Below are positions 4,451 through 24,958 of a stretch of 64,000 nucleotides of DNA, one piece after another. The notes below the pieces were generated by a model that was given only the letters and a program-made list of their open reading frames with translations, had not been told where the DNA came from and searched no databases. The stretch is from sequence record MZ956761.1; one strand, given 5' to 3'. The position numbers were made by a program, and so were the translations under genes. Numbering within the stretch: position 1 is the stretch's first letter; every line of letters starts with the position of its first letter. Origin of the DNA: a phage.

Positions 4451-5653
4451 ATGAAAGTATGCATTTTTATGGCTCGAGGTCTTGAAGGTTGTGGTGTAAC
4501 TAAATTTTCTCTTGAGCAACGTGATTGGTTTATTAAAAATGGTCATGAAGTAACTTTGGTTTATGCTAAAGATAAATCATTTACTCGTAACTGCGCGCAC
4601 GATTATAAATCATTTTCAATTCCGGTTTTATTGGCAAAAGAATACGATAAAACACTTAAGCTGGTAAATGATTGTGATATTCTAATTATCAATTCAGTTC
4701 CTGCTACTTCAGTTGAAGAAGACACTATTAATAACTATAAAAAAATTATTGATAACATTAAACCTTCGGTTCGTGTTGTAGTTTATCAACATGACCATTC
4801 TTCTCTTTCTTTGCGACGAAATTTGGGATTAGAAGAAACTGTTCGTCGAGCTGATGTTATTTTTAGCCATTCTGATAATGGTGATTTTAATAAAGTTCTG
4901 ATGAAAGAATGGTATCCAGAAACTGTTTCTCTGTTTGATGATATTGAAGAAGCGCCGACAGTATATAACTTTCAGCCTCCTATGGATATTGCGAAGGTTC
5001 GGTCAACCTACTGGAAAGATGTTTCTGAAATTAACATGAATGTCAACCGTTGGATTGGTCGTACGACTACATGGAAGGGTTTTTATCAGATGTTTGATTT
5101 TCACGAAAAACATCTTAAACCTGCAGGACTAAGTACTATTATGGAAGGTCTGGAACGTTCTCCAGCATTCATTCCTATTAAAGAAAAAGGAATTCCATAC
5201 GAGTATTATCGTCTTCATCAAGTAGACCAAATTAAAATTGCTCCTAATTTGCCAACGCAAATTCTTGACCGTTATGTAAATAGCGAAATGCTTGAGCGTA
5301 TGAGTAAATCCGGATTTGGTTATCAGTTGAGTAAGTTGGATAAAAAATATCTACAACGTTCTTTAGAATATACTCATCTCGAGCTTGGTGCATGTGGAAC
5401 AATTCCGGTATTTTGGAAATCTACTGGCGAAAATTTAAAATTCCGTGTTGATAATACTCCTTTGACCTCACATGATAGCGGTATCATTTGGTTTGATGAA
5501 AATGATATGGAATCAACATTCGAGCGTATTAAAGAACTGTCATCTGACCGAGCTCTTTATGACCGTGAGCGAGAAAAAGCGTATGAATTTTTGTATCAGC
5601 ATCAAGATTCAAGCTTCTGCTTTAAAGAACAGTTTGACATTATTACAAAATAA
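4451..5653 (+). CDS. agt: DNA alpha-glucosyltransferase
   Basis: 400 aa; N-terminus matches recalled T4 alpha-gt; strong SD GAGGA. Confidence 0.92.
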   Translation: MKVCIFMARGLEGCGVTKFSLEQRDWFIKNGHEVTLVYAKDKSFTRNCAHDYKSFSIPVLLAKEYDKTLKLVNDCDILIINSVPATSVEEDTINNYKKIIDNIKPSVRVVVYQHDHSSLSLRRNLGLEETVRRADVIFSHSDNGDFNKVLMKEWYPETVSLFDDIEEAPTVYNFQPPMDIAKVRSTYWKDVSEINMNVNRWIGRTTTWKGFYQMFDFHEKHLKPAGLSTIMEGLERSPAFIPIKEKGIPYEYYRLHQVDQIKIAPNLPTQILDRYVNSEMLERMSKSGFGYQLSKLDKKYLQRSLEYTHLELGACGTIPVFWKSTGENLKFRVDNTPLTSHDSGIIWFDENDMESTFERIKELSSDRALYDREREKAYEFLYQHQDSSFCFKEQFDIITK

Positions 5654-5676
5654 AGGGCTTCGGCCCTTTAGCTTTA
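5653..5676 (+). terminator. rho-independent terminator candidate
   Basis: AAGGGC-TTCG-GCCCTT hairpin then T-rich. Confidence 0.6.
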
Positions 5677-5692
5677 TACGGAGTTTGATATA

Positions 5693-5833
5693 ATGATATT
5701 TCTTGGATATGTGATACTTTTTCTAGCGTTTTATCTATTCGCCAGAGCATGTTGGATTGGGTTCTTTAGCACTCCAGATGGATTTATTTCAATAATTTTA
5801 TTTTGCATTTCAATGACGGTTCTTGATATATGA
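5693..5833 (+). CDS. hypothetical small hydrophobic protein (46 aa)
   Basis: ATG after GGAG; stop overlaps gene 47 ATG. Confidence 0.35.
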   Translation: MIFLGYVILFLAFYLFARACWIGFFSTPDGFISIILFCISMTVLDI

Positions 5834-7109: not shown

Positions 7110-7296
7110 CATTAATGATGAATTCATAGCAAATATTGATTACACCGAAGAAGATTCTAGATATGTTGGAATAATTTATATCACATCAAAAGCAGCACAA
7201 GGCGTTGTTTGCATGGCTGAATTTGATGAATACTTTTTAGATTATGATGATATGATAGAATGGTCTAAAAGATACATTAAAAGGAATCTTTTGTGA
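7081..7296 (+). CDS. hypothetical protein (start uncertain)
   Basis: ORF ends in overlap with gene 46 start; start codon ambiguous. Confidence 0.3.
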   Translation: MHTVKFSTFDINDEFIANIDYTEEDSRYVGIIYITSKAAQGVVCMAEFDEYFLDYDDMIEWSKRYIKRNLL

Positions 7297-8981
7297 AGAA
7301 TTTTAAACTAAACCGAGTTAGGTATCAAAATATAATGTCAGTAGGTGGAAATCCTATTGACATTCAACTAGATAAGGTTCAAAAAACTCTTATTACTGGA
7401 CGAAATGGCGGTGGTAAGTCTACTATGTTAGAAGCCATCACATTTGGGCTTTTTGGCAAGCCATTTCGTGATGTAAAGAAAGGTCAATTAATAAACAGCA
7501 CAAATAAGAAAGAACTTTTAGTTGAACTGTGGATGGAATATGATGAGAAAAAGTACTATATCAAAAGAGGACAAAAACCAAACGTTTTCGAAATCACCGT
7601 TAACGGTACACGTCTTAATGAATCTGCCAGCAGTAAAGATTTCCAAGCAGAATTTGAACAGCTTATCGGAATGTCATATGCCAGTTTCAAGCAGATTGTT
7701 GTCCTTGGTACAGCAGGGTATACCCCTTTCATGGGTTTGTCGACCCCTGCACGAAGAAAGCTTGTGGAAGACCTGCTCGAGGTAGGAACATTAGCTGAAA
7801 TGGATAAGCTTAATAAAGCACTAATACGTGAATTAAATTCACAAAACCAAGTGCTTGATGTTAAAAAAGATAGTATTATCCAACAAATTAAAATATATAA
7901 TGATAACGTTGAACGCCAGAAAAAATTAACTGGTGATAACCTTACTCGTCTACAGAATATGTATGATGATTTGGCAAAAGAAGCTAGAACGTTAAAATCG
8001 GAAATAGAAGAAGCTAATGAAAGATTAGTTAATATTGTTTTGGATGAAGACCCGACTGATGCATTTAATAAAATCGGTCAAGAAGCATTTTTAATTAAAT
8101 CAAAAATTGACTCGTATAATAAAGTCATTAATATGTATCACGAAGGTGGATTATGTCCAACCTGTTTGTCACAATTAAGTTCCGGTGATAAAGTTGTTTC
8201 TAAAATTAAAGATAAAGTTTCTGAATGCACGCATTCGTTTGAACAGCTTTCAACNCNNCNNGNNNNNNNNNNAGTATNTCGTTNNTNANTNNNGNGATNN
8301 TNNNAANNNCNANNNGTNNGTTGCTTGCNNNTNNTNTGTNNCNNTNNAAANCANTNNNTNNNCACGACTGTAGATAAAGCTAAAANAGTTAAAGCAGCTA
8401 TAGAANAAGCATCATCTGAGTTTATTGNCCATGCTGATNAAATNGCNCTGCTTNAAGANGAACTTGATAAAATTGTTAAGNCAAANACTAATTTNNTAAT
8501 GGAAAAATNCCACNGAGGAATTTTGACTGATATGCTCAAAGATTCTGGTATTAANGGTGCTATTATTAAAAAGTACATTCCATTATTTAATAAGCAGATT
8601 AACCATTATCTTAAAATAATGGAAGCGGATTATGTGTTTACATTAGATGAAGAATTTAATGAGACAATTAAATCCCGTGGTCGTGAAGATTTTAGTTATG
8701 CTTCATTCAGTCAAGGCGAAAAAGCACGAATTGATATTGCTCTTCTATTTACTTGGCGTGATATTGCTGAAAAAGTTTCAGGTGTTAAAATAAACACACT
8801 AATTCTCGATGAAGTTTTTGATTCAGCAACTGATGTTGAAGGTGTAAAAGCTATTTCAACTATTTTAGATAGTTTAAAAAATACTAATGTTTTTGTTATT
8901 TCACATAGAGACCACGACCCGCAAGCATATGGTCAGCATCTTCAAATGAAGAAAGTTGGTCGATTTACTGTAATGGTTTAA
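7293..8981 (+). CDS. 46: recombination endonuclease subunit gp46 (Rad50-like ATPase); internal tract of ambiguous bases
   Basis: 562 codons, GTG start; Walker A GRNGGGKST; N-containing tract 8255-8540 gives X residues but frame stays open. Confidence 0.9.
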   Translation: MKNFKLNRVRYQNIMSVGGNPIDIQLDKVQKTLITGRNGGGKSTMLEAITFGLFGKPFRDVKKGQLINSTNKKELLVELWMEYDEKKYYIKRGQKPNVFEITVNGTRLNESASSKDFQAEFEQLIGMSYASFKQIVVLGTAGYTPFMGLSTPARRKLVEDLLEVGTLAEMDKLNKALIRELNSQNQVLDVKKDSIIQQIKIYNDNVERQKKLTGDNLTRLQNMYDDLAKEARTLKSEIEEANERLVNIVLDEDPTDAFNKIGQEAFLIKSKIDSYNKVINMYHEGGLCPTCLSQLSSGDKVVSKIKDKVSECTHSFEQLSXXXXXXXVXRXXXXXXXXXXXXXCLXXXCXXXXXXXXTTVDKAKXVKAAIEXASSEFIXHADXXXLLXXELDKIVKXXTNXXMEKXHXGILTDMLKDSGIXGAIIKKYIPLFNKQINHYLKIMEADYVFTLDEEFNETIKSRGREDFSYASFSQGEKARIDIALLFTWRDIAEKVSGVKINTLILDEVFDSATDVEGVKAISTILDSLKNTNVFVISHRDHDPQAYGQHLQMKKVGRFTVMV

Positions 8982-12613: not shown

Positions 12614-15310
12614 ATGAAAGAATTTTATATCTCTATCGAAACAGTCGGAAATAACATTGTTGAGCGTTATATTGATGAAAATGGAAAGGAACGTACTCGT
12701 GAAGTAGAATATCTTCCGACTATGTTTAGGCATTGTAAGGAAGAGTCAAAATACAAAGACATTTATGGTAAAAACTGTGCTCCTCAAAAATTTCCATCAA
12801 TGAAAGATGCACGAGACTGGATGAAGCGAATGGAAGACATCGGTCTCGAAGCTCTCGGTATGAACGATTTTAAACTCGCTTATATCAGTGATACATATGG
12901 TTCAGAAATTGTTTATGACCGAAAATTTGTTCGTGTAGCTAACTGTGACATTGAGGTTACTGGTGATAAATTTCCTGACCCAATGAAAGCAGAATATGAA
13001 ATTGATGCTATCACTCATTATGATTCAATTGACGACCGTTTTTACGTCTTTGATTTGTTGAATTCAATGTACGGTTCAGTATCAAAATGGGACGCAAAGT
13101 TAGCTGCTAAGCTTGACTGTGAAGGTGGTGATGAAGTTCCTCAAGAAATTCTTGACCGAGTAATTTATATGCCATTTGATAATGAGCGTGATATGCTCAT
13201 GGAATATATTAATCTCTGGGAACAGAAACGACCTGCTATTTTTACTGGTTGGAATATTGAGGGATTTGACGTTCCGTATATCATGAATCGCGTTAAAATG
13301 GTTCTCGGCGAACGTAGTATGAAACGCTTCTCTCCAATCGGTCGAGTAAAATCTAAACTAATTCAAAATATGTACGGTAGCAAAGAAATTTATTCTATTG
13401 ATGGCGTATCTATTCTTGATTATTTAGATTTATACAAGAAGTTTGCATTTACTAATTTGCCATCGTTCTCTTTGGAATCAGTTGCTCAACATGAAACCAA
13501 AAAAGGTAAATTGCCGTACGATGGTCCTATTAATAAACTTCGTGAGACTAATCATCAACGATACATTAGTTATAACATCATTGACGTAGAATCAGTTCAA
13601 GCAATTGATAAAATTCGTGGGTTTATCGATCTAGTTTTAAGTATGTCTTATTACGCTAAAATGCCTTTTTCTGGTGTAATGAGTCCTATTAAAACTTGGG
13701 ATGCTATTATTTTTAACTCACTGAAAGGTGAACATAAGGTTATTCCTCAACAAGGTTCGCACGTTAAACAGAGTTTTCCAGGTGCATTTGTGTTTGAACC
13801 TAAACCGATTGCTCGTCGATACATTATGAGTTTTGACTTGACGTCTCTGTATCCTAGCATTATTCGTCAGGTTAACATTAGTCCTGAGACTATTCGCGGG
13901 CAGTTTAAAGTTCATCCAATTCATGAATATATCGCAGGAACAGCTCCTAAGCCAAGTGATGAATATTCTTGCTCTCCGAATGGATGGATGTATGATAAGC
14001 ACCAAGAAGGTATCATTCCAAAGGAAATCGCTAAAGTATTTTTCCAGCGTAAAGATTGGAAAAAGAAAATGTTCGCGGAAGAAATGAATGCCGAAGCTAT
14101 TAAAAAGATTATTATGAAAGGTGCAGGGTCTTGCTCAACTAAACCAGAAGTTGAACGATATGTTAAGTTCAGTGATGATTTCTTAAACGAATTATCGAAT
14201 TACACCGAATCTGTTCTTAACAGTCTGATTGAAGAATGTGAAAAAGCGGCTACACTTGCTAACACAAATCAGCTGAACCGTAAAATTCTTATTAACAGTC
14301 TTTATGGTGCTCTTGGTAATATTCATTTCCGCTACTATGATTTGCGAAATGCTACTGCTATCACAATTTTCGGTCAAGTTGGTATTCAGTGGATTGCTCG
14401 TAAAATTAATGAATATCTGAATAAAGTATGTGGAACTAATGGTGAAGATTTCATCGCAGCAGGTGATACTGATTCGGTATATGTTTGTGTAGATAAAGTA
14501 ATTGAAAAAGTAGGTCTTGACCGCTTTAAAGAACAAAATGATTTAGTTGAATTCATGAATCAGTTTGGTAAGAAAAAGATGGAACCTATGATTGATGTTG
14601 CATATCGTGAGTTATGTGATTATATGAATAACCGCGAGCATCTGATGCATATGGACCGTGAAGCTATTTCTTGCCCTCCGCTTGGTTCAAAGGGTGTTGG
14701 TGGATTTTGGAAAGCGAAAAAACGTTATGCTCTGAACGTTTATGATATGGAAGATAAGCGATTTGCTGAACCGCATCTAAAAATCATGGGTATGGAAACT
14801 CAGCAGAGTTCAACACCAAAAGCAGTACAAGAAGCTCTCGAAGAAAGTATTCGTCGTATTCTTCAGGAAGGTGAAGAGTCTGTCCAAGAATACTACAAGA
14901 ACTTTGAGAAAGAATATCGTCAACTTGATTATAAAGTTATTGCTGAAGTAAAAACTGCGAACGATATAGCGAAATATGATGATAAAGGTTGGCCAGGATT
15001 TAAATGTCCGTTCCATATTCGTGGGGTGCTAACTTATCGTCGAGCTGTTAGTGGTTTAGGTGTAGCTCCAATTTTGGATGGAAATAAAGTAATGGTTCTT
15101 CCATTACGTGAAGGAAATCCATTTGGTGACAAGTGCATTGCTTGGCCGTCGGGCACAGAACTTCCAAAAGAAATTCGTTCTGACGTACTGTCTTGGATTG
15201 ACTACTCAACTTTGTTCCAAAAATCGTTTGTTAAACCGCTTGCGGGCATGTGTGAATCGGCTGGTATGGACTATGAAGAAAAAGCTTCGTTAGACTTCCT
15301 GTTTGGCTGA
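12614..15310 (+). CDS. 43: DNA polymerase gp43 (family B)
   Basis: 898 aa; exo and pol motifs; matches recalled T4 gp43. Confidence 0.97.
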   Translation: MKEFYISIETVGNNIVERYIDENGKERTREVEYLPTMFRHCKEESKYKDIYGKNCAPQKFPSMKDARDWMKRMEDIGLEALGMNDFKLAYISDTYGSEIVYDRKFVRVANCDIEVTGDKFPDPMKAEYEIDAITHYDSIDDRFYVFDLLNSMYGSVSKWDAKLAAKLDCEGGDEVPQEILDRVIYMPFDNERDMLMEYINLWEQKRPAIFTGWNIEGFDVPYIMNRVKMVLGERSMKRFSPIGRVKSKLIQNMYGSKEIYSIDGVSILDYLDLYKKFAFTNLPSFSLESVAQHETKKGKLPYDGPINKLRETNHQRYISYNIIDVESVQAIDKIRGFIDLVLSMSYYAKMPFSGVMSPIKTWDAIIFNSLKGEHKVIPQQGSHVKQSFPGAFVFEPKPIARRYIMSFDLTSLYPSIIRQVNISPETIRGQFKVHPIHEYIAGTAPKPSDEYSCSPNGWMYDKHQEGIIPKEIAKVFFQRKDWKKKMFAEEMNAEAIKKIIMKGAGSCSTKPEVERYVKFSDDFLNELSNYTESVLNSLIEECEKAATLANTNQLNRKILINSLYGALGNIHFRYYDLRNATAITIFGQVGIQWIARKINEYLNKVCGTNGEDFIAAGDTDSVYVCVDKVIEKVGLDRFKEQNDLVEFMNQFGKKKMEPMIDVAYRELCDYMNNREHLMHMDREAISCPPLGSKGVGGFWKAKKRYALNVYDMEDKRFAEPHLKIMGMETQQSSTPKAVQEALEESIRRILQEGEESVQEYYKNFEKEYRQLDYKVIAEVKTANDIAKYDDKGWPGFKCPFHIRGVLTYRRAVSGLGVAPILDGNKVMVLPLREGNPFGDKCIAWPSGTELPKEIRSDVLSWIDYSTLFQKSFVKPLAGMCESAGMDYEEKASLDFLFG

Positions 15311-15322
15311 TAGAATAAATCT

Positions 15323-15346
15323 AGGGACCTCCGGGTCCCTTTTTCA
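15323..15346 (+). terminator. rho-independent terminator
   Basis: AGGGACC-TCCG-GGTCCCT hairpin + TTTTT. Confidence 0.8.
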
Positions 15347-15423
15347 TACAAGTAATATAAATCTATACTTATGAAAAACAGATGATTCTGGACCTTTAGA
15401 ATTCCCCAAAAAATTTTCACAAA

Positions 15424-15457
15424 ACTGTTTACAAGACTGTTCTTCCATGGTACTATA
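15424..15457 (+). promoter_or_regulatory. T4 early promoter
   Basis: GTTTACA -35, 17-nt spacer, TGgTACTAT -10. Confidence 0.7.
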
Positions 15458-15493
15458 CAACTATCAACTAATACGGATTTGGAGAATAAAATG
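15448..15493 (+). repeat. 46-nt promoter/leader repeat, identical to 42647-42692
   Basis: TGGTACTATACAACTATCAACTAATACGGATTTGGAGAATAAAATG, exact second copy elsewhere. Confidence 0.9.
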
Positions 15494-15727
15494 AAAATTG
15501 TTATGGGATGCTTAGCAGTTTGTTTAGTTGCATTAGCAGCTGTTCCATTTATTGATATTGAAAATGATACTCAGAATGTGATTGAATCTAATACTGTTAT
15601 TCACATGAATGGTAAAGTATCAACAAAAATTGATGATAATCTTCATATGAATACTAATGGAACGCTGGGTGTTCAATTAGGTAATACCTGTGTAAGCACT
15701 ACTGGAGTAATTACTACTTGTATTTGA
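15491..15727 (+). CDS. hypothetical secreted/membrane protein
   Basis: 78 aa from ATG after GGAG; N-terminal hydrophobic signal-like segment. Confidence 0.5.
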   Translation: MKIVMGCLAVCLVALAAVPFIDIENDTQNVIESNTVIHMNGKVSTKIDDNLHMNTNGTLGVQLGNTCVSTTGVITTCI

Positions 15728-15737
15728 GGAAATTATT

Positions 15738-16118
15738 ATGAAAATCGCTATTTTGGTTATTGCATTAGGTCTTACTGGTTGTGTAGCTCAAGGACCGGTA
15801 GTAAATCAGTCTGATGTAGGAAAAATTGTAAACTGTTCAAGCAAATTTTATAATCCTAATGTCAAGTGTTATAAAGAAGCTCCAAAACAGACAGTAGAAC
15901 AAATGCAGGCGAATTTTGACGAAGCTATTCGTCCAGATGAATCTGCTCAAGCATATCGTAATTCGGATGTAATTACACGCGAAGAAAAAATTGAAAACTA
16001 CTGCGCTGAACTTTGGGCTAATTGGGCTAATAATTACCAATGGCGTACTGGTAAAAATGCTCCGATGGAGTATGTAGTGAATTCTTATAATTCATGTGTA
16101 AAAAATTTGACTAAGTGA
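15738..16118 (+). CDS. hypothetical lipoprotein
   Basis: 126 aa; signal peptide with lipobox LTGC. Confidence 0.55.
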   Translation: MKIAILVIALGLTGCVAQGPVVNQSDVGKIVNCSSKFYNPNVKCYKEAPKQTVEQMQANFDEAIRPDESAQAYRNSDVITREEKIENYCAELWANWANNYQWRTGKNAPMEYVVNSYNSCVKNLTK

Positions 16119-16125
16119 GGAAAAC

Positions 16126-16377
16126 ATGGAAACTTTAGTAGCAGGTTCAATTTTTATGGTTTTAGTTTCAGGTGTGTTGGCTATTATTATATACATGCTT
16201 CCATGGTTTATCGCCTTGATGCGTGGGTCAAAATCGACAGTAGGAATCTTTTTCACATCTTTACTGTTTAACTGGTCAATTATTGGTTGGTTTATTACAT
16301 TTATTTGGTCAATTGCGGGTGAAACTAAAAAGTCTGCACAACCAAATCAGGTAATTATCATCAGAGAGAAGGAATGA
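16126..16377 (+). CDS. imm: superinfection immunity membrane protein Imm
   Basis: 83 aa, two hydrophobic helices, located between 43 and 42 as T4 imm. Confidence 0.7.
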   Translation: METLVAGSIFMVLVSGVLAIIIYMLPWFIALMRGSKSTVGIFFTSLLFNWSIIGWFITFIWSIAGETKKSAQPNQVIIIREKE

Positions 16378-16523
16378 AAAGCAAAATTATAGCAGTGTTG
16401 CTTTTAATCTTGATGATTATAATAAGTATATACTATAGTGTAACGGTTCCTCTTATGATTCCAACTATTATTTTAGGTTGGGGTTTATTACTGTTACAAG
16501 TTAAATATGAATGTATCAATTGA
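16374..16523 (+). CDS. hypothetical small membrane protein (49 aa)
   Basis: ATGA overlap with imm stop; strongly hydrophobic. Confidence 0.4.
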   Translation: MKSKIIAVLLLILMIIISIYYSVTVPLMIPTIILGWGLLLLQVKYECIN

Positions 16524-16530
16524 GGTTTAA

Positions 16531-17271
16531 ATGATTAGTGACTCTATGACAGTTGAAGAAATCCGTCTTCATTTGGGGCTTGCATTAAAAGAAAAAGATT
16601 TCGTAGTTGATAAAACCGGTGTTAAAACTATTGAAATTATTGGTGCATCATTTGTAGCAGATGAACCGTTTATTTTTGGCGCTCTTAATGATGAATACAT
16701 TCAACGTGAACTTGAATGGTATAAATCTAAAAGTTTGTTTGTTAAAGATATTCCGGGTGAAACACCGAAGATTTGGCAGCAGGTAGCATCTTCTAAAGGC
16801 GAAATTAACTCGAATTATGGTTGGGCCATCTGGTCAGAAGATAACTATGCCCAGTATGATATGTGTTTAGCTGAACTTGGTCAAAATCCTGATTCTCGGC
16901 GTGGTATCATGATTTATACTCGTCCATCCATGCAATTTGACTATAATAAAGATGGTATGTCAGATTTCATGTGCACGAATACAGTACAGTACCTGATTCG
17001 TGATAAGAAAGTTAATGCAGTAGTAAGCATGCGTTCAAATGACGTGGTCTTCGGATTCCGTAATGATTATGCATGGCAAAAATACGTACTAGATAAATTA
17101 GTATCTGATTTGAATGCAGGTGATTCAACTCGTCAGTATAAAGCAGGTTCTATTATATGGAATGTTGGAAGTCTTCATGTATATTCTCGTCATTTTTACT
17201 TGGTTGATCATTGGTGGAATACTGGCGAAACTCATATTGTGAAAAAAGATTATAAAGGTGAGTGGAAATGA
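16531..17271 (+). CDS. 42: dCMP hydroxymethylase gp42
   Basis: 246 aa; matches recalled T4 gp42. Confidence 0.95.
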   Translation: MISDSMTVEEIRLHLGLALKEKDFVVDKTGVKTIEIIGASFVADEPFIFGALNDEYIQRELEWYKSKSLFVKDIPGETPKIWQQVASSKGEINSNYGWAIWSEDNYAQYDMCLAELGQNPDSRRGIMIYTRPSMQFDYNKDGMSDFMCTNTVQYLIRDKKVNAVVSMRSNDVVFGFRNDYAWQKYVLDKLVSDLNAGDSTRQYKAGSIIWNVGSLHVYSRHFYLVDHWWNTGETHIVKKDYKGEWK

Positions 17272-18110
17272 TTCAATTCGTAATTCCAAGCTATCAACGC
17301 GTAGGGGCAGTTTCTGCCCTTGATATGTTTCCGACTGATTATGAACCTCATATTGTAGTACGTGAACACGAAGAAAAAGCTTATTATGACGCTTACGGGT
17401 CTAGAGCTAAAATTATAACTATTCCTGATGATGTTAACGGAATTGCTGGTACTCGTAAAGCAATTACTGATATGTATGCAGGTCAACGAATTTGGATGAT
17501 TGATGATGATACTACTATTCGTATGAGTTCAATGCGAAAGAAAGATGATCGTCGCTGCGTAGATAAAATTAATCAATTAACTCGTGAACAGTTCTATGAA
17601 TTGATTCAATACGTTGAAGATGCCATGGATTGCGGGTATTATCATGGTCATGCTCGTTTACCAATTTTTAAAATTACTTCATCTTGGGGTAATTATCGTG
17701 AAAATTCATATGGATTCACGAATACTTGGTATGACCTCGGGAAACTTACAACAGAACAAATTGGGTATGGAAAAATTGATTTATGCGAAGATATGTATGC
17801 ATTTCTCAATTTAATTAATCAAGGTTATCCGCATTTGGCCTTGTTCAAATATCTGGTTGTATCTGGAAAAGCACAGGCTCCAGGCGGATGTAGTTCAATT
17901 CGTAGTAATTCAAAACATAATAGAGCTCTTGAGCAAATCAATAGAGAGTTTCCAGAGCAAGCTCGTTGGAAAACATCGAATATCGAAAAGAGAAAATCGT
18001 TGGGTGAAGAAGACGAGCCATTAAAAGTTCTTCGCATGTGTGTTTCGCGCAAAGAAAAATCAGAAGCATTTCATAAGTTTAATGCTATTCATCCAATAGC
18101 AGTTGATTAA
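17268..18110 (+). CDS. putative DNA glycosyltransferase (GT-A-like, DxD motif) at the beta-gt locus
   Basis: 280 aa from ATG 17268 (ATGA overlap with gene 42); IWMIDDDTT DxD-like motif; does not match recalled T4 beta-gt. Confidence 0.6.
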   Translation: MIQFVIPSYQRVGAVSALDMFPTDYEPHIVVREHEEKAYYDAYGSRAKIITIPDDVNGIAGTRKAITDMYAGQRIWMIDDDTTIRMSSMRKKDDRRCVDKINQLTREQFYELIQYVEDAMDCGYYHGHARLPIFKITSSWGNYRENSYGFTNTWYDLGKLTTEQIGYGKIDLCEDMYAFLNLINQGYPHLALFKYLVVSGKAQAPGGCSSIRSNSKHNRALEQINREFPEQARWKTSNIEKRKSLGEEDEPLKVLRMCVSRKEKSEAFHKFNAIHPIAVD

Positions 18111-18134
18111 TGCCTAAATTTATTGTGTTATAAT
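18111..18134 (+). promoter_or_regulatory. candidate middle promoter for uvsX
   Basis: imperfect MotA box TGCCTAAA, then extended -10 TGtTATAAT (18126-18134). Confidence 0.3.
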
Positions 18135-18187
18135 TACTCTATCTTTAACCAGTGAGGAAAATATAATGTTGCCTATGGAAAAAATGA

Positions 18188-19369
18188 ATGTCTATTGCAG
18201 ATTTAAAATCCCGTTTGATTAAAGCTTCCACTTCTAAAATGACTGCTGAACTGACTACATCTAAATTCTTTAATGAAAAGGATGTAATCCGTACAAAAAT
18301 CCCAATGCTTAATATCGCTATTTCTGGTGCGATTGATGGTGGTATGCAGTCTGGTTTAACCATTTTTGCAGGTCCTTCTAAACACTTTAAATCAAATATG
18401 TCTTTGACTATGGTTGCAGCGTATTTGAACAAATATCCTGACGCGGTATGTCTATTCTATGATAGCGAATTTGGTATTACTCCTGCTTATTTGCGATCCA
18501 TGGGAGTTGACCCGGAACGAGTAATTCATACGCCAATTCAGTCAGTTGAACAGCTGAAAATTGATATGGTGAATCAGCTTGAAGCTATTGAGCGTGGTGA
18601 AAAAGTTATTGTATTCATCGACTCAATTGGTAATATGGCTTCTAAGAAAGAAACGGAAGATGCCTTGAATGAAAAATCTGTGGCAGATATGACTCGTGCT
18701 AAATCACTGAAGTCATTATTCCGTATTGTTACTCCTTATTTTAGTATTAAAAACATTCCGTGCGTTGCGGTTAACCATACAATTGAAACAATTGAAATGT
18801 TTAGTAAAACCGTGATGACAGGTGGTACAGGCGTAATGTATTCGGCTGATACTGTATTCATTATCGGTAAGCGCCAGATTAAAGATGGTTCTGATCTTCA
18901 GGGGTATCAATTTGTTCTAAATGTAGAAAAATCTCGTACCGTTAAAGAAAAAAGTAAATTCTTTATTGATGTTAAATTTGACGGTGGCATCGATCCTTAT
19001 TCTGGATTGTTAGATATGGCTCTAGAATTAGGATTTGTGGTAAAACCTAAAAATGGCTGGTATGCTCGTGAATTTCTTGATGAAGAAACCGGCGAGATGA
19101 TTCGCGAAGAAAAATCTTGGCGTGCAAAAGATACCAACTGTACTACATTCTGGGGTCCTTTATTTAAGCATCAACCATTCCGAGATGCTATTAAACGTGC
19201 TTATCAGTTAGGTGCTATTGATAGTAATGAAATTGTTGAAGCTGAGGTTGATGAATTGATTAACTCAAAGGTTGAAAAATTTAAATCTCCAGAAAGTAAA
19301 AGTAAATCAGCAGCTGATTTAGAAACTGACCTAGATCAGTTAAGTGATATGGAAGAATTTAATGAATAA
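18188..19369 (+). CDS. uvsX: recombinase UvsX (RecA-like)
   Basis: 393 aa; Walker A GPSKHFKS; matches recalled T4 UvsX. Confidence 0.95.
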   Translation: MSIADLKSRLIKASTSKMTAELTTSKFFNEKDVIRTKIPMLNIAISGAIDGGMQSGLTIFAGPSKHFKSNMSLTMVAAYLNKYPDAVCLFYDSEFGITPAYLRSMGVDPERVIHTPIQSVEQLKIDMVNQLEAIERGEKVIVFIDSIGNMASKKETEDALNEKSVADMTRAKSLKSLFRIVTPYFSIKNIPCVAVNHTIETIEMFSKTVMTGGTGVMYSADTVFIIGKRQIKDGSDLQGYQFVLNVEKSRTVKEKSKFFIDVKFDGGIDPYSGLLDMALELGFVVKPKNGWYAREFLDEETGEMIREEKSWRAKDTNCTTFWGPLFKHQPFRDAIKRAYQLGAIDSNEIVEAEVDELINSKVEKFKSPESKSKSAADLETDLDQLSDMEEFNE

Positions 19370-19706
19370 AGATGATTTAGATTTAGATCTAGAAATTATC
19401 GATGAATCCCCCTCTTCGGAGGGGGAAGAAGAAAGAAAAGAACGTCTTTTTAATGAATCTCTTAAGATAATTAAATCTGCTATGGAAAATGTTATCCAGG
19501 AGATTGTCATTAAACTAGAAGACGGTTCTACACACATTGTGTATGTGACAAAATTAGATTGGGTTGATGGAAAAGTCGTAATGGACTTTGCTGTTCTTGA
19601 CCAAGAAAGAAAAGCTGAGTTAGCTCCTCATGTAGAAAAATGTATTACAATGCAACTGCAAGATGCATTTAATAAAAGGTCAAAGAAAAAATTTAAATTC
19701 TTTTAA
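19362..19706 (+). CDS. 40: head vertex assembly chaperone gp40
   Basis: 114 aa from ATG 19362 overlapping uvsX stop; T4 synteny. Confidence 0.75.
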   Translation: MNKDDLDLDLEIIDESPSSEGEEERKERLFNESLKIIKSAMENVIQEIVIKLEDGSTHIVYVTKLDWVDGKVVMDFAVLDQERKAELAPHVEKCITMQLQDAFNKRSKKKFKFF

Positions 19707-19715
19707 GGAGTAAGT

Positions 19716-21143
19716 GTGGTAGAAATTATTCTTTCTCATCTCATATTTGATCAAGCTTATTTTTCAAAAGTTTGGCCATATATGGATTCAGAATATTTTG
19801 AAAGTGGTCCAGCTAAAAATACATTCAAATTAATTAAATCTCATGTTAATGAGTACCATAGCGTTCCATCTATTAATGCGTTAAATGTTGCATTAGAAAA
19901 TAGTTCATTTACTGAAACAGAATATTCTGGTGTAAAAACACTTATTTCAAAACTAGCTGATTCTCCGGAAGACCACAGTTGGTTAATAAAAGAAACAGAA
20001 AAATATGTTCAGCAAAGGGCGATGTTTAATGCTACGTCTAAAATAATCGAAATTCAAACTAATGCTGAGCTTCCTCCGGAAAAACGAAATAAGAAAATGC
20101 CGGACGTTGGTGCTATTCCTGACATCATGCGTCAAGCATTATCTATTTCATTTGATAGCTACGTTGGTCATGATTGGATGGATGACTACGAAGCACGCTG
20201 GCTATCTTATATGAATAAAGCTCGTAAAGTTCCATTTAAACTTCGTATTTTGAATAAAATTACAAAAGGCGGAGCTGAAACAGGAACACTGAACGTTTTA
20301 ATGGCTGGTGTTAACGTTGGTAAGTCATTAGGATTGTGTTCATTAGCAGCAGATTATTTGCAGCTCGGACATAATGTTCTTTACATTTCCATGGAAATGG
20401 CAGAAGAAGTTTGTGCTAAGCGTATTGACGCTAATATGCTTGATGTTTCTCTTGATGACATTGATGATGGGCATATTTCTTACGCTGAGTATAAAGGAAA
20501 AATGGAAAAATGGCGTGAGAAATCTACTCTCGGTCGTTTAATCGTTAAGCAATATCCCACTGGTGGAGCAGACGCTAATACATTTCGATCGCTTTTAAAC
20601 GAATTGAAGCTCAAGAAGAATTTTGTTCCAACAATCATTATTGTTGACTATCTAGGTATTTGTAAATCTTGCCGCATCAGAGTTTATTCAGAAAATAGTT
20701 ACACAACTGTTAAAGCTATCGCAGAGGAATTGCGTGCTCTGGCTGTTGAAACCGAAACTGTTCTTTGGACTGCAGCGCAGGTTGGTAAGCAAGCTTGGGA
20801 TTCTTCTGATGTTAACATGAGCGATATTGCAGAATCTGCCGGTCTTCCAGCAACAGCCGATTTTATGCTTGCGGTCATTGAAACCGAGGAGCTAGCAGCT
20901 GCTGAACAACAACTCATTAAGCAAATCAAATCACGATATGGTGATAAGAATAAATGGAATAAGTTTTTGATGGGTGTTCAAAAAGGAAATCAGAAATGGG
21001 TAGAAATTGAACAAGATTCTACTCCAACTGAAGTAAGTGAAGTAGCAGGTTCACAGCAGATTCAGGCTGAACAGAATCGCTATCAAAGAAACGAATCTGC
21101 TCGAGCCCAGTTAGATGCTTTAGCGAATGAATTAAAATTTTAG
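19716..21143 (+). CDS. 41: replicative DNA helicase gp41
   Basis: 475 aa, GTG start; Walker A GVNVGKS; matches recalled T4 gp41. Confidence 0.95.
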   Translation: MVEIILSHLIFDQAYFSKVWPYMDSEYFESGPAKNTFKLIKSHVNEYHSVPSINALNVALENSSFTETEYSGVKTLISKLADSPEDHSWLIKETEKYVQQRAMFNATSKIIEIQTNAELPPEKRNKKMPDVGAIPDIMRQALSISFDSYVGHDWMDDYEARWLSYMNKARKVPFKLRILNKITKGGAETGTLNVLMAGVNVGKSLGLCSLAADYLQLGHNVLYISMEMAEEVCAKRIDANMLDVSLDDIDDGHISYAEYKGKMEKWREKSTLGRLIVKQYPTGGADANTFRSLLNELKLKKNFVPTIIIVDYLGICKSCRIRVYSENSYTTVKAIAEELRALAVETETVLWTAAQVGKQAWDSSDVNMSDIAESAGLPATADFMLAVIETEELAAAEQQLIKQIKSRYGDKNKWNKFLMGVQKGNQKWVEIEQDSTPTEVSEVAGSQQIQAEQNRYQRNESARAQLDALANELKF

Positions 21144-23142: not shown

Positions 23143-24171
23143 ATGTCATCAATACCTTGGATTGATAATGAGTTTGCATACCGTGCATTAGCTCATTTAC
23201 CTAAATTCGCACAAGTAAATAATAGTTCAACTTTTAAATTACGGTTTAGATGTCCTGTTTGTGGAGATTCAAAAACCGATCAAAATAAAGCCCGTGGATG
23301 GTATTATGGTGATAATAATGAAGGAAATATTCATTGTTATAACTGTAACTATCATGCACCAATCGGAATATATTTAAAGGAGTTTGAACCTGATTTATAT
23401 CGTGAGTATATCTTTGAAATAAGAAAAGAAAAAGGTAAAAGTCGTCCAGTAGAAAAACCTAAAGAACTTCCTAAACAACCTGAGAAGAAAATAATTAAAT
23501 CTCTTCCGTCATGCATTAGATTAGATAAACTGGCGGAAGACCATCCAATTATAAAATATGTAAAAGCTCGTTGTATTCCAAAGGATAAATGGAAATATCT
23601 TTGGTTTACAACTGAATGGCCTAAATTAGTTAATAGCATAGCACCCGGAACATATAAAAAGGAAATACCTGAGCCTCGTCTTGTTATTCCAATTTATAAT
23701 GCTAATGGAAAAGCTGAGTCTTTTCAAGGACGTGCATTAAAGAAAGATGCTCCTCAAAAATATATCACCATCAAAGCTTATCCCGAGGCAACAAAAATCT
23801 ATGGAGTCGAACGAGTCAAAGATGGTGATGTATATGTTCTAGAAGGACCTATAGATTCACTTTTTATTGAAAATGGTATAGCTATTACGGGTGGTCAATT
23901 AGACCTAGAAGTTGTTCCATTTAAAGATAGACGTGTGTGGGTCTTAGATAATGAACCTCGTCACCCTGACACTATTAAACGAATGACTAAATTAGTTGAT
24001 GCAGGAGAAAGGGTTATGTTTTGGGATAAATCTCCCTGGAAATCAAAAGATGTTAATGATATGATTAGAAAGGAAGGTGCAACCCCTGAACAAATTATGG
24101 AATATATGAAAAATAATATTGCCCAAGGGTTGATGGCTAAAATGCGGCTATCTAAATATGCTAAGATTTAA
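23143..24171 (+). CDS. 61: DNA primase gp61
   Basis: 342 aa; zinc-ribbon CPVCGD...CYNC; matches recalled T4 gp61. Confidence 0.95.
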   Translation: MSSIPWIDNEFAYRALAHLPKFAQVNNSSTFKLRFRCPVCGDSKTDQNKARGWYYGDNNEGNIHCYNCNYHAPIGIYLKEFEPDLYREYIFEIRKEKGKSRPVEKPKELPKQPEKKIIKSLPSCIRLDKLAEDHPIIKYVKARCIPKDKWKYLWFTTEWPKLVNSIAPGTYKKEIPEPRLVIPIYNANGKAESFQGRALKKDAPQKYITIKAYPEATKIYGVERVKDGDVYVLEGPIDSLFIENGIAITGGQLDLEVVPFKDRRVWVLDNEPRHPDTIKRMTKLVDAGERVMFWDKSPWKSKDVNDMIRKEGATPEQIMEYMKNNIAQGLMAKMRLSKYAKI

Positions 24172-24368
24172 ATTAACCCAACCAAAGCAAATGCTAAATC
24201 TACGAATGTATCAAGAGTAATTACTGGAATATTAACACCATGAGCAATAGCAATTGGTGATAAAACAAAATTCCAGAGTAAAATTCCTACCGTAGCAGAA
24301 ATAGTAAAAGCTATACGCTTTTTATTACCTTTGATGGCATTAACAAGTGCCATTAATTTTTGTACCAT
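24168..24368 (-). CDS. hypothetical small membrane protein, convergent with gene 61
   Basis: 66 aa minus-strand ORF; strong SD TAAGGAGG 4 nt before ATG; two hydrophobic segments. Confidence 0.5.
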   Translation of the reverse strand: MVQKLMALVNAIKGNKKRIAFTISATVGILLWNFVLSPIAIAHGVNIPVITLDTFVDLAFALVGLI

Positions 24369-24439
24369 ATGTCCTCCTTATTGCTTTATATATTTATTGT
24401 ATAATTAATCTACTAACCCATGAATTGAAAGGAAAAATA

Positions 24440-24958
24440 ATGGCTCACTTTAATGAATGTGCTCATTTGATCGAAGGTGTTGATAAAGCAAATCGTGCAT
24501 ATGCTGAGTATATTATGCACAGTATTGACCCATTGCAGGTTATGCTTGACATGCAGCGGCATTTACAGATTCGTTTGGCTAATGATAAACCAGAAACAAA
24601 TCGTCATCCTGATTCACTTGAAACTGCAGGAGAAGTTCTTGCTTGGTTGCGAAACCAAGACGATTATATCGCAGACGAAACTCGCGAGCTATATACTTCT
24701 CTTGGTGGTATGAGTAATGGTGAAAAAGAAGCTTCTGCTGTATGGAAACCTTGGAAGAAACGTTATTCTGAAATGCAATCCAAGAAAATTCAAGATTTAT
24801 CTCCTGAAGATCAACTTGAAATTAAATTTGAACTAATTGACCAATTTCACTTTTTCATGAATAAATTTATTGCTCTTGGAATGTCAGCTGAAGAAATCTT
24901 TAAACTTTATTATCTGAAAAATGCTGAAAACTTCGCTCGTCAAGACCGAGGCTATTAA
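24440..24958 (+). CDS. 56: dCTP pyrophosphatase gp56
   Basis: 172 aa from ATG 24440; matches recalled T4 gp56 (MAHFNECAHLIEGVDKA...). Confidence 0.9.
   Translation: MAHFNECAHLIEGVDKANRAYAEYIMHSIDPLQVMLDMQRHLQIRLANDKPETNRHPDSLETAGEVLAWLRNQDDYIADETRELYTSLGGMSNGEKEASAVWKPWKKRYSEMQSKKIQDLSPEDQLEIKFELIDQFHFFMNKFIALGMSAEEIFKLYYLKNAENFARQDRGY

Follow-up and report, generated by a model that had tools for sequence, protein, structure and literature searches.

The T2 and T6 sequences of the transferase gene responsible for the second glucose of gentiobiosylated phage DNA have been known for decades. Work published between 1960 and 1962 reported gentiobiose in T6 DNA as well as the glucosylating enzymes (Lehman and Pratt; Kornberg et al.; Kuno and Lehman), as cited in a 2026 survey (PMC13216743). 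T2 DNA carries about 70% alpha-glucosyl-5-hydroxymethylcytosine (alpha-glucosyl-hmC) and about 5% gentiobiosyl-hmC, and T6 DNA about 3% and about 72%, respectively (PMC13390438; bioRxiv 10.64898/2026.02.25.707755). T6 without the second transferase (ba-gt, also ggt or g-gt) contains alpha-glucosyl-hmC only and shows raised sensitivity to the glycosylase Brig1, which leaves wild-type T6 DNA undegraded (PMC11078745). BapA frees glucose from T6 delta-g-gt DNA but not from wild-type T6 DNA (bioRxiv 10.64898/2026.02.25.707755).

Nucleoside compositions have also been reported for Durham Tequatrovirus phages that encode alpha-gt together with a TET-associated glycosyltransferase (TAGT), and these contain alpha-glucosyl- and gentiobiosyl-hmC, never beta-glucosyl-hmC (PMC13390438). 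Solly and six others have about 1/3 hmC and about 2/3 gentiobiosyl-hmC, and Geo, EL and BGP have hmC, alpha-glucosyl-hmC and gentiobiosyl-hmC at 1:2:2 (PMC13390438). The 1:2:2 group is marked by dam and nuclease-like genes, which the other Durham phages, including Solly, lack (PMC13390438).

Most phages that encode glycosyltransferases combine either alpha-gt or beta-gt with TAGT, and the T4 arrangement of alpha-gt with beta-gt was found in 6 of 753 genomes, T4 included (PMC13216743). A gene other than beta-gt is thus the usual Tequatrovirus state of the locus and T4 is the exception. Here we analyzed 64,000 nucleotides of phage DNA (MZ956761.1; the window), in which the already known transferase gene lies in its usual place, with nothing new in the gene itself.

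Gene order and the replaced T4 cassette

A single long ORF on the plus strand (17262-18110) occupies the interval between gene 42 and uvsX, and translation from its ATG at 17268 yields a protein of 280 aa (Table 1). The same start is annotated in the closest record, Escherichia phage ADUt, where the CDS is labelled glucosyl transferase. This ATG and the gene 42 TGA overlap (...GGAAATGATTC), a typical coupled arrangement. The 5′ neighbour, gene 42, encodes a protein 97% identical to T4 gp42, and the 3′ neighbour, uvsX (18188-19369), a protein 90% identical to T4 UvsX. Two antisense ORFs in the transferase gene (17250-17486 and 17825-18052; 75-78 aa, TTG starts) lie wholly inside the conserved sense gene.

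Table 1. Coordinates of the transferase gene, its conserved motifs and its pathway partners in the window
Feature	Position	Strand	Description and basis
Second-glucose transferase CDS (ba-gt / ggt / TAGT)	17268..18110	+	280 aa plus stop; ORF, PHROG 842, Pfam TAGT, T2/T6 identity
R11 codon, N-terminal IPSYxR motif	17298..17300	+	Family-invariant; His in T2
D79-D80-D81 codons, DxD-type motif	17502..17510	+	Putative metal / UDP-sugar diphosphate binding; family alignment, AvpGT 9jma alignment
Segment without DNA homology to T4	17254..18199	.	946 bp, versus 1,941 bp (beta-gt + segA) in T4
Alpha-glucosyltransferase (a-gt)	4451..5653	+	400 aa; makes the alpha-glucosyl-hmC acceptor; Pfam AGT, E 3.9e-237
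Gene 42, dCMP hydroxymethylase	16531..17271	+	Supplies hm-dCMP; 97% to T4 gp42; Pfam Thymidylat_synt
Gene 56, dCTPase/dUTPase	24440..24958	+	Excludes unmodified C; 100% to Geo dCTP pyrophosphatase; ADUt annotation

Comparison with T4 beta-gt (351 aa) by BLASTP returned chance fragments only (best E = 3.4). The window protein matches TAGT alone in Pfam, whereas T4 beta-gt matches PF09198 (E 9.4e-98), and tblastn searches of the whole 64 kb with T4 beta-gt, segA and mobB gave no match at E <= 1. On the BLASTP value, the different Pfam family and the absence of a tblastn match, we rejected homology to T4 beta-gt. An earlier note on this DNA, made from the nucleotide letters and their translations, had described a 280-aa gene unlike that of T4 between 42 and uvsX, with a product that does not match T4 beta-gt. 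The ORF table and the identities of the flanking genes bear out the first point, and the second holds as well, with no detectable similarity and separate families (PF20691 versus PF09198).

At the DNA level (blastn, window 15300-20000), homology to T4 ends at window position 17253 (T4 25497), 18 nt short of the gene 42 end, and restarts at window position 18200 (T4 23555), 12 nt into uvsX. From the positions of these breaks, a 946-bp cassette stands in for the 1,941-bp beta-gt and segA cassette of T4, and the homing endonuclease segA is part of the T4 cassette but not of that in the window. Neither of the homing endonuclease genes located beside the glucosyltransferases of T4, segA by beta-gt and mobB by alpha-gt, occurs in the window, where the corresponding intervals are 17254-18199 and 5654-5830.

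The 2.8 kb from gene 42 through uvsX (16531-19369) is 100% identical to ADUt (OQ466432, Tequatrovirus) and 97.6-98.8% identical to the next 29 records among the matches listed; records covering at least 80% of this query number 476. A protein at least 95% identical to the window transferase is encoded by 472 records in the phage collection searched, and approximately 200 further records, from Klebsiella, Enterobacter, Citrobacter and Salmonella phages, encode one at 60-80% identity.

A promoter and terminator scan of 16300-18300 gave no interpretable excess over shuffled sequences, and Rfam (gathering scores) and tRNA scans of the whole window gave no matches. The 77 nt that separate the transferase gene from uvsX include an extended −10-like element (TGTTATAAT, 18126-18134), which a simple −35/−10 scan did not call; the start of uvsX follows approximately 55 nt downstream. 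The terminator-like scan flagged a 9-bp GC-rich hairpin (TAGGGGCAG-TTT-CTGCCCTTG, 17302-17322) located 35 nt into the transferase ORF, which may be a mere consequence of the coding sequence.

Family membership and predicted fold

To identify the protein, we retrieved the interval from gene 42 to uvsX in each of T4, T6 and T2 and compared the encoded proteins directly. The window protein is identical end to end to the T2 protein at 276 of 280 residues (99%) and to the T6 protein at 274 of 280 (98%). It differs from the T2 enzyme only by H11R, R92K, V101I and S251P (T2 to window), and from the T6 enzyme (AP018814) by N40Y, G55D, one extra Asp, R92K, V101I and H106R. The T2/T6 enzymes (PF20691, PHROG 842) also share with it the locus order, length, DDD motif and partner alpha-gt. 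Profile searches returned a full-length match to PHROG 842, beta-glucosyl-HMC-alpha-glucosyltransferase (E 5.6e-89), and a match to Pfam TAGT, PF20691, at 38.8 bits (gathering cut-off, 27.5 bits) over profile positions 2-205 of 205; homologues P0001-P0011 likewise carry PF20691. NCBIfam holds no model for the window transferase and none for alpha-gt. Chance is ruled out because there are hundreds of near-identical homologues and conserved ones down to 29% identity. We therefore assign the gene, with high confidence, as a T2/T6-type beta-glucosyl-HMC-alpha-glucosyltransferase (ba-gt / ggt) of the Pfam TAGT family, and nothing we found contradicts this identity.

The sequence IWMIDDDTTI is encoded at 17490-17519. 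Its three aspartates (D79, D80 and D81) are invariant across 10 homologues, down to 32% identity, and the family alignment contains further invariant positions at R11, D121, D175 and in a G206-G207-x-S209 cluster, with P251 and E174 nearly invariant. By conservation, D175 (invariant) and E174 (nearly invariant) are candidates for the catalytic base.

A solved structure of a family member could not be detected by sequence, and phmmer gave chance matches only. A profile search with the ten homologues produced a single weak match in the N-terminal part, to AvpGT, a GT-A enzyme (E 0.23). It pairs the family IPSYxR with PtYnR and the DDD with the DDD of AvpGT; R11 aligned to the Arg that is conserved in the N-terminal nucleotide-binding motif of GT2 enzymes. 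An AlphaFold2 model built from the ten-homologue alignment (mean pLDDT 70.7, pTM 0.75; weak in loops 87-100, 130-149 and 194-210) has strands alternating with helices, with the DDD ending the predicted strand 74-79. When the model was searched against the PDB with Foldseek, the top 29 matches were all GT-A glycosyltransferases, mostly of GT2 type (E 1e-5 to 3e-4, TM approximately 0.45-0.5), including AvpGT, WrtF, RmlT, the chondroitin polymerase K4CP, TarS and SpsA, which scored E 1e-5 to 1e-4. The nucleotidyltransferases KdsB and RmlA are among the lower-ranked matches.

With moderate confidence, the model points to a GT2-like GT-A fold, a single Rossmann-like alpha/beta/alpha domain with the DxD after a central strand. 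The window protein would share with the GT2-family GT-A enzymes (AvpGT 9jma/9jn3, WrtF, RmlT, TarS, K4CP, SpsA) the predicted Rossmann-like fold, a PxYxR-type motif near the N terminus and, following strand 4, a DDD/DxD. Identity to these enzymes is just 10-15% at a TM of approximately 0.45-0.5, the predicted acceptor differs, being a sugar on duplex DNA, and the C-terminal 70 or so residues are family-specific. T4 beta-gt (PF09198, GT-B, CAZy GT63) shares with the T2/T6-type enzyme the genomic slot, the UDP-glucose donor, the inverting outcome (beta linkage) and phage DNA as target. In contrast, there is no sequence similarity, the fold class is GT-B rather than the GT-A predicted here (PMC13216743), and beta-gt acts on bare hmC whereas the T2/T6-type acceptor is alpha-glucosyl-hmC.

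Three further claims of the earlier note can be considered together. Its GT-A-type DxD-like motif is upheld by the invariant DDD, the AvpGT alignment and the GT2-type Foldseek matches; its suggestion of gentiobiosyl-type glycosylation as in T2/T6 agrees with the 99% (T2) and 98% (T6) identity at the same locus; and the alpha-gt that it called intact has 400 aa, aligns gap-free to T4 alpha-gt and matches Pfam AGT (Table 1).

Predicted glycosylation of the phage DNA

Alpha-gt, gene 42 and gene 56 are all present, and the pathway from hmC through alpha-glucosyl-hmC to gentiobiosyl-hmC is therefore complete within the window. The alpha-gt protein is 91% identical to that of T4, 99% to T2, 92% to T6 and 100% to Solly. 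In the proposed pathway, gp42 and gp56 would lead to phage DNA containing hmC, and alpha-gt would place an alpha-linked glucose on most hmC residues. The second transferase would then use UDP-glucose to add a beta-1,6 glucose onto the first glucose, giving gentiobiosyl-hmC. The UDP-glucose is presumably held via a divalent metal on the DDD, and the mechanism is predicted to be inverting; we infer the metal dependence from GT2 enzymes, and the roles of individual residues are likewise putative. The T6 deletion phenotype and the Solly nucleosides indirectly support beta-1,6 glucosylation of alpha-glucosyl-hmC as the probable activity (PMC11078745, PMC13390438). As there is no beta-gt in the window, no beta-glucosyl-hmC is expected.

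The closest phage with measured nucleosides is Solly (Escherichia phage vB_Eco_Solly, OY720021), which has the same neighbouring genes, an identical alpha-gt protein and a TAGT identical at 278 of 280 residues (K92R and I101V only, window to Solly); the measurements are those of Solly DNA. From the identical alpha-gt, a ba-gt two residues away and the measured Solly DNA, we predict a T6-like profile. By this analogy the window phage probably has a T6/Solly-like ratio, with about 1/3 bare hmC, about 2/3 gentiobiosyl-hmC and little mono-alpha-glucosyl-hmC. Geo is more distant, with 7 differences in ba-gt, an alpha-gt 92% identical and dam and nuclease-like genes. Between the primase gene 61 and gene 56 (24169-24440) the window, like the Solly group, has no dam methyltransferase or nuclease-like gene, whereas T4, Geo, EL and BGP have them.

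The prediction of the ratio is weakened because the T2 enzyme and alpha-gt are each 99% identical to those of the window, yet T2 DNA has just ~5% gentiobiosyl-hmC. The same gene could accordingly have a T2-like outcome, in which a few percent of sites are gentiobiosylated, most carry mono-alpha-glucosyl-hmC and the DNA is fully sensitive to Brig1-type glycosylases. The window protein is marginally nearer to T2 (276/280) than to T6 (274/280), and its alpha-gt is 99% identical to that of T2 and only 92% to that of T6. However, it lacks both substitutions of the T2 enzyme, R11H and P251S, which a search of 50,697 phage records found only in those of T2 and in SV76, and Solly, with an identical alpha-gt and a ba-gt two residues off, was measured as T6-like (PMC13390438). 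We consider a T2-like outcome unlikely.

In the model, residues 87-100 form a loop of low confidence, and K92 and I101 are located within it or next to it. The chance that this K92/I101 allele gives a glycosylation pattern or acceptor range unlike both T2 and T6 appears small; examples might be an intermediate mono- to di-glucosyl ratio, as in the 1:2:2 Durham group, or other glycosylated bases.

The enzyme might instead stand in for T4 beta-gt and glucosylate bare hmC directly in the beta configuration, without extending an alpha-glucose. It occupies the beta-gt locus and is predicted to be inverting, giving a beta linkage, and TAGT homologues elsewhere occur with beta-gt or alone (PMC13216743). 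But phages with TAGT and alpha-gt show no beta-glucosyl-hmC and retain approximately 25-33% bare hmC (PMC13390438; bioRxiv 10.64898/2026.02.25.707755), alpha-glucosyl-hmC alone remains in T6 without ba-gt (PMC11078745), and the folds are unrelated (predicted GT-A versus GT-B for beta-gt; PMC13216743), all of which makes this role very improbable. Even less credible is a non-DNA acceptor, such as a host envelope glycan, or another sugar donor: the nearest solved structures are GT2 enzymes acting on polysaccharides, teichoic acids and small molecules, but T6 genetics ties enzymes 98-99% identical to this protein to a DNA phenotype (PMC11078745), the gene sits within a block of DNA-modification and replication genes, and gentiobiose, which is glucose-glucose, was chemically identified in T6 DNA (Kuno and Lehman 1962, as cited in PMC13216743).

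The T6-like profile is relevant mainly to annotation and host-range prediction, as the hmC sugar pattern determines which defences a Tequatrovirus evades. Gentiobiosyl-hmC is neither excised by Brig1 nor deglucosylated by BapA, both alpha-glucosyl-hmC-specific defences, and it is still seen by GmrSD/BrxU-type type IV enzymes. The bare hmC fraction is a potential target of hmC glycosylases and of enzymes of the McrBC type. The prediction for an isolate with this gene content, be it therapeutic or environmental, is a T6-like rather than a T4-like profile.

The T2 allele and the reference records

Two substitutions set the T2 enzyme (L004:4286-5125, minus strand, AP018813) apart from all other proteins compared: R11H, which replaces an Arg invariant in the family, and P251S, which replaces a nearly invariant Pro. 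The window keeps R11 and P251 (18018-18020). Searches with 31-mers centred on each T2 codon matched 8 of 50,697 phage records (seven T2 and SV76), and the 31-mer for R11 of the window matched 108 records. From these positions, R11H/P251S might be a hypomorphic T2 allele that accounts for the difference in gentiobiosyl-hmC between T2 and T6 (~5% versus ~72%), an idea of which we found no statement in the literature examined. If true, the window allele would be a naturally occurring equivalent of the T2 enzyme with full activity.

The T6 records conflict with each other. The protein in AP018814/NC_054907 (L003:4138-4974) misses one Asp of the invariant DDD and has 279 aa, and MH550421 (L009:301-1143) keeps the DDD, but its codon 10 is a stop and its annotated start is Met20. 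The cause is either mutation in particular stocks or sequencing error, in a phage that serves as the reference for this enzyme.

Public annotations near the transferase locus are unreliable. The second transferases of T6 and T2 carry the label 'hypothetical protein', the T2 alpha-gt in AP018813 (L008:4391-5593) is mislabelled 'N-acetylmuramoyl-L-alanine amidase', and ADUt has implausible gene names, e.g., 'molybdenum ABC transporter' and 'hemolysin XhlA'. Over the whole window, identity to ADUt is approximately 99.9%; the differences are 40 mismatches and, within gene 46 (7293-8981), one patch with a 6-nt indel. The patch, approximately 108 nt at 8254-8363 and approximately 102 nt in ADUt, is the sole break in the alignment, and gene 46 is annotated approximately 16 codons shorter in ADUt than the longest window ORF (546 versus 562 aa).
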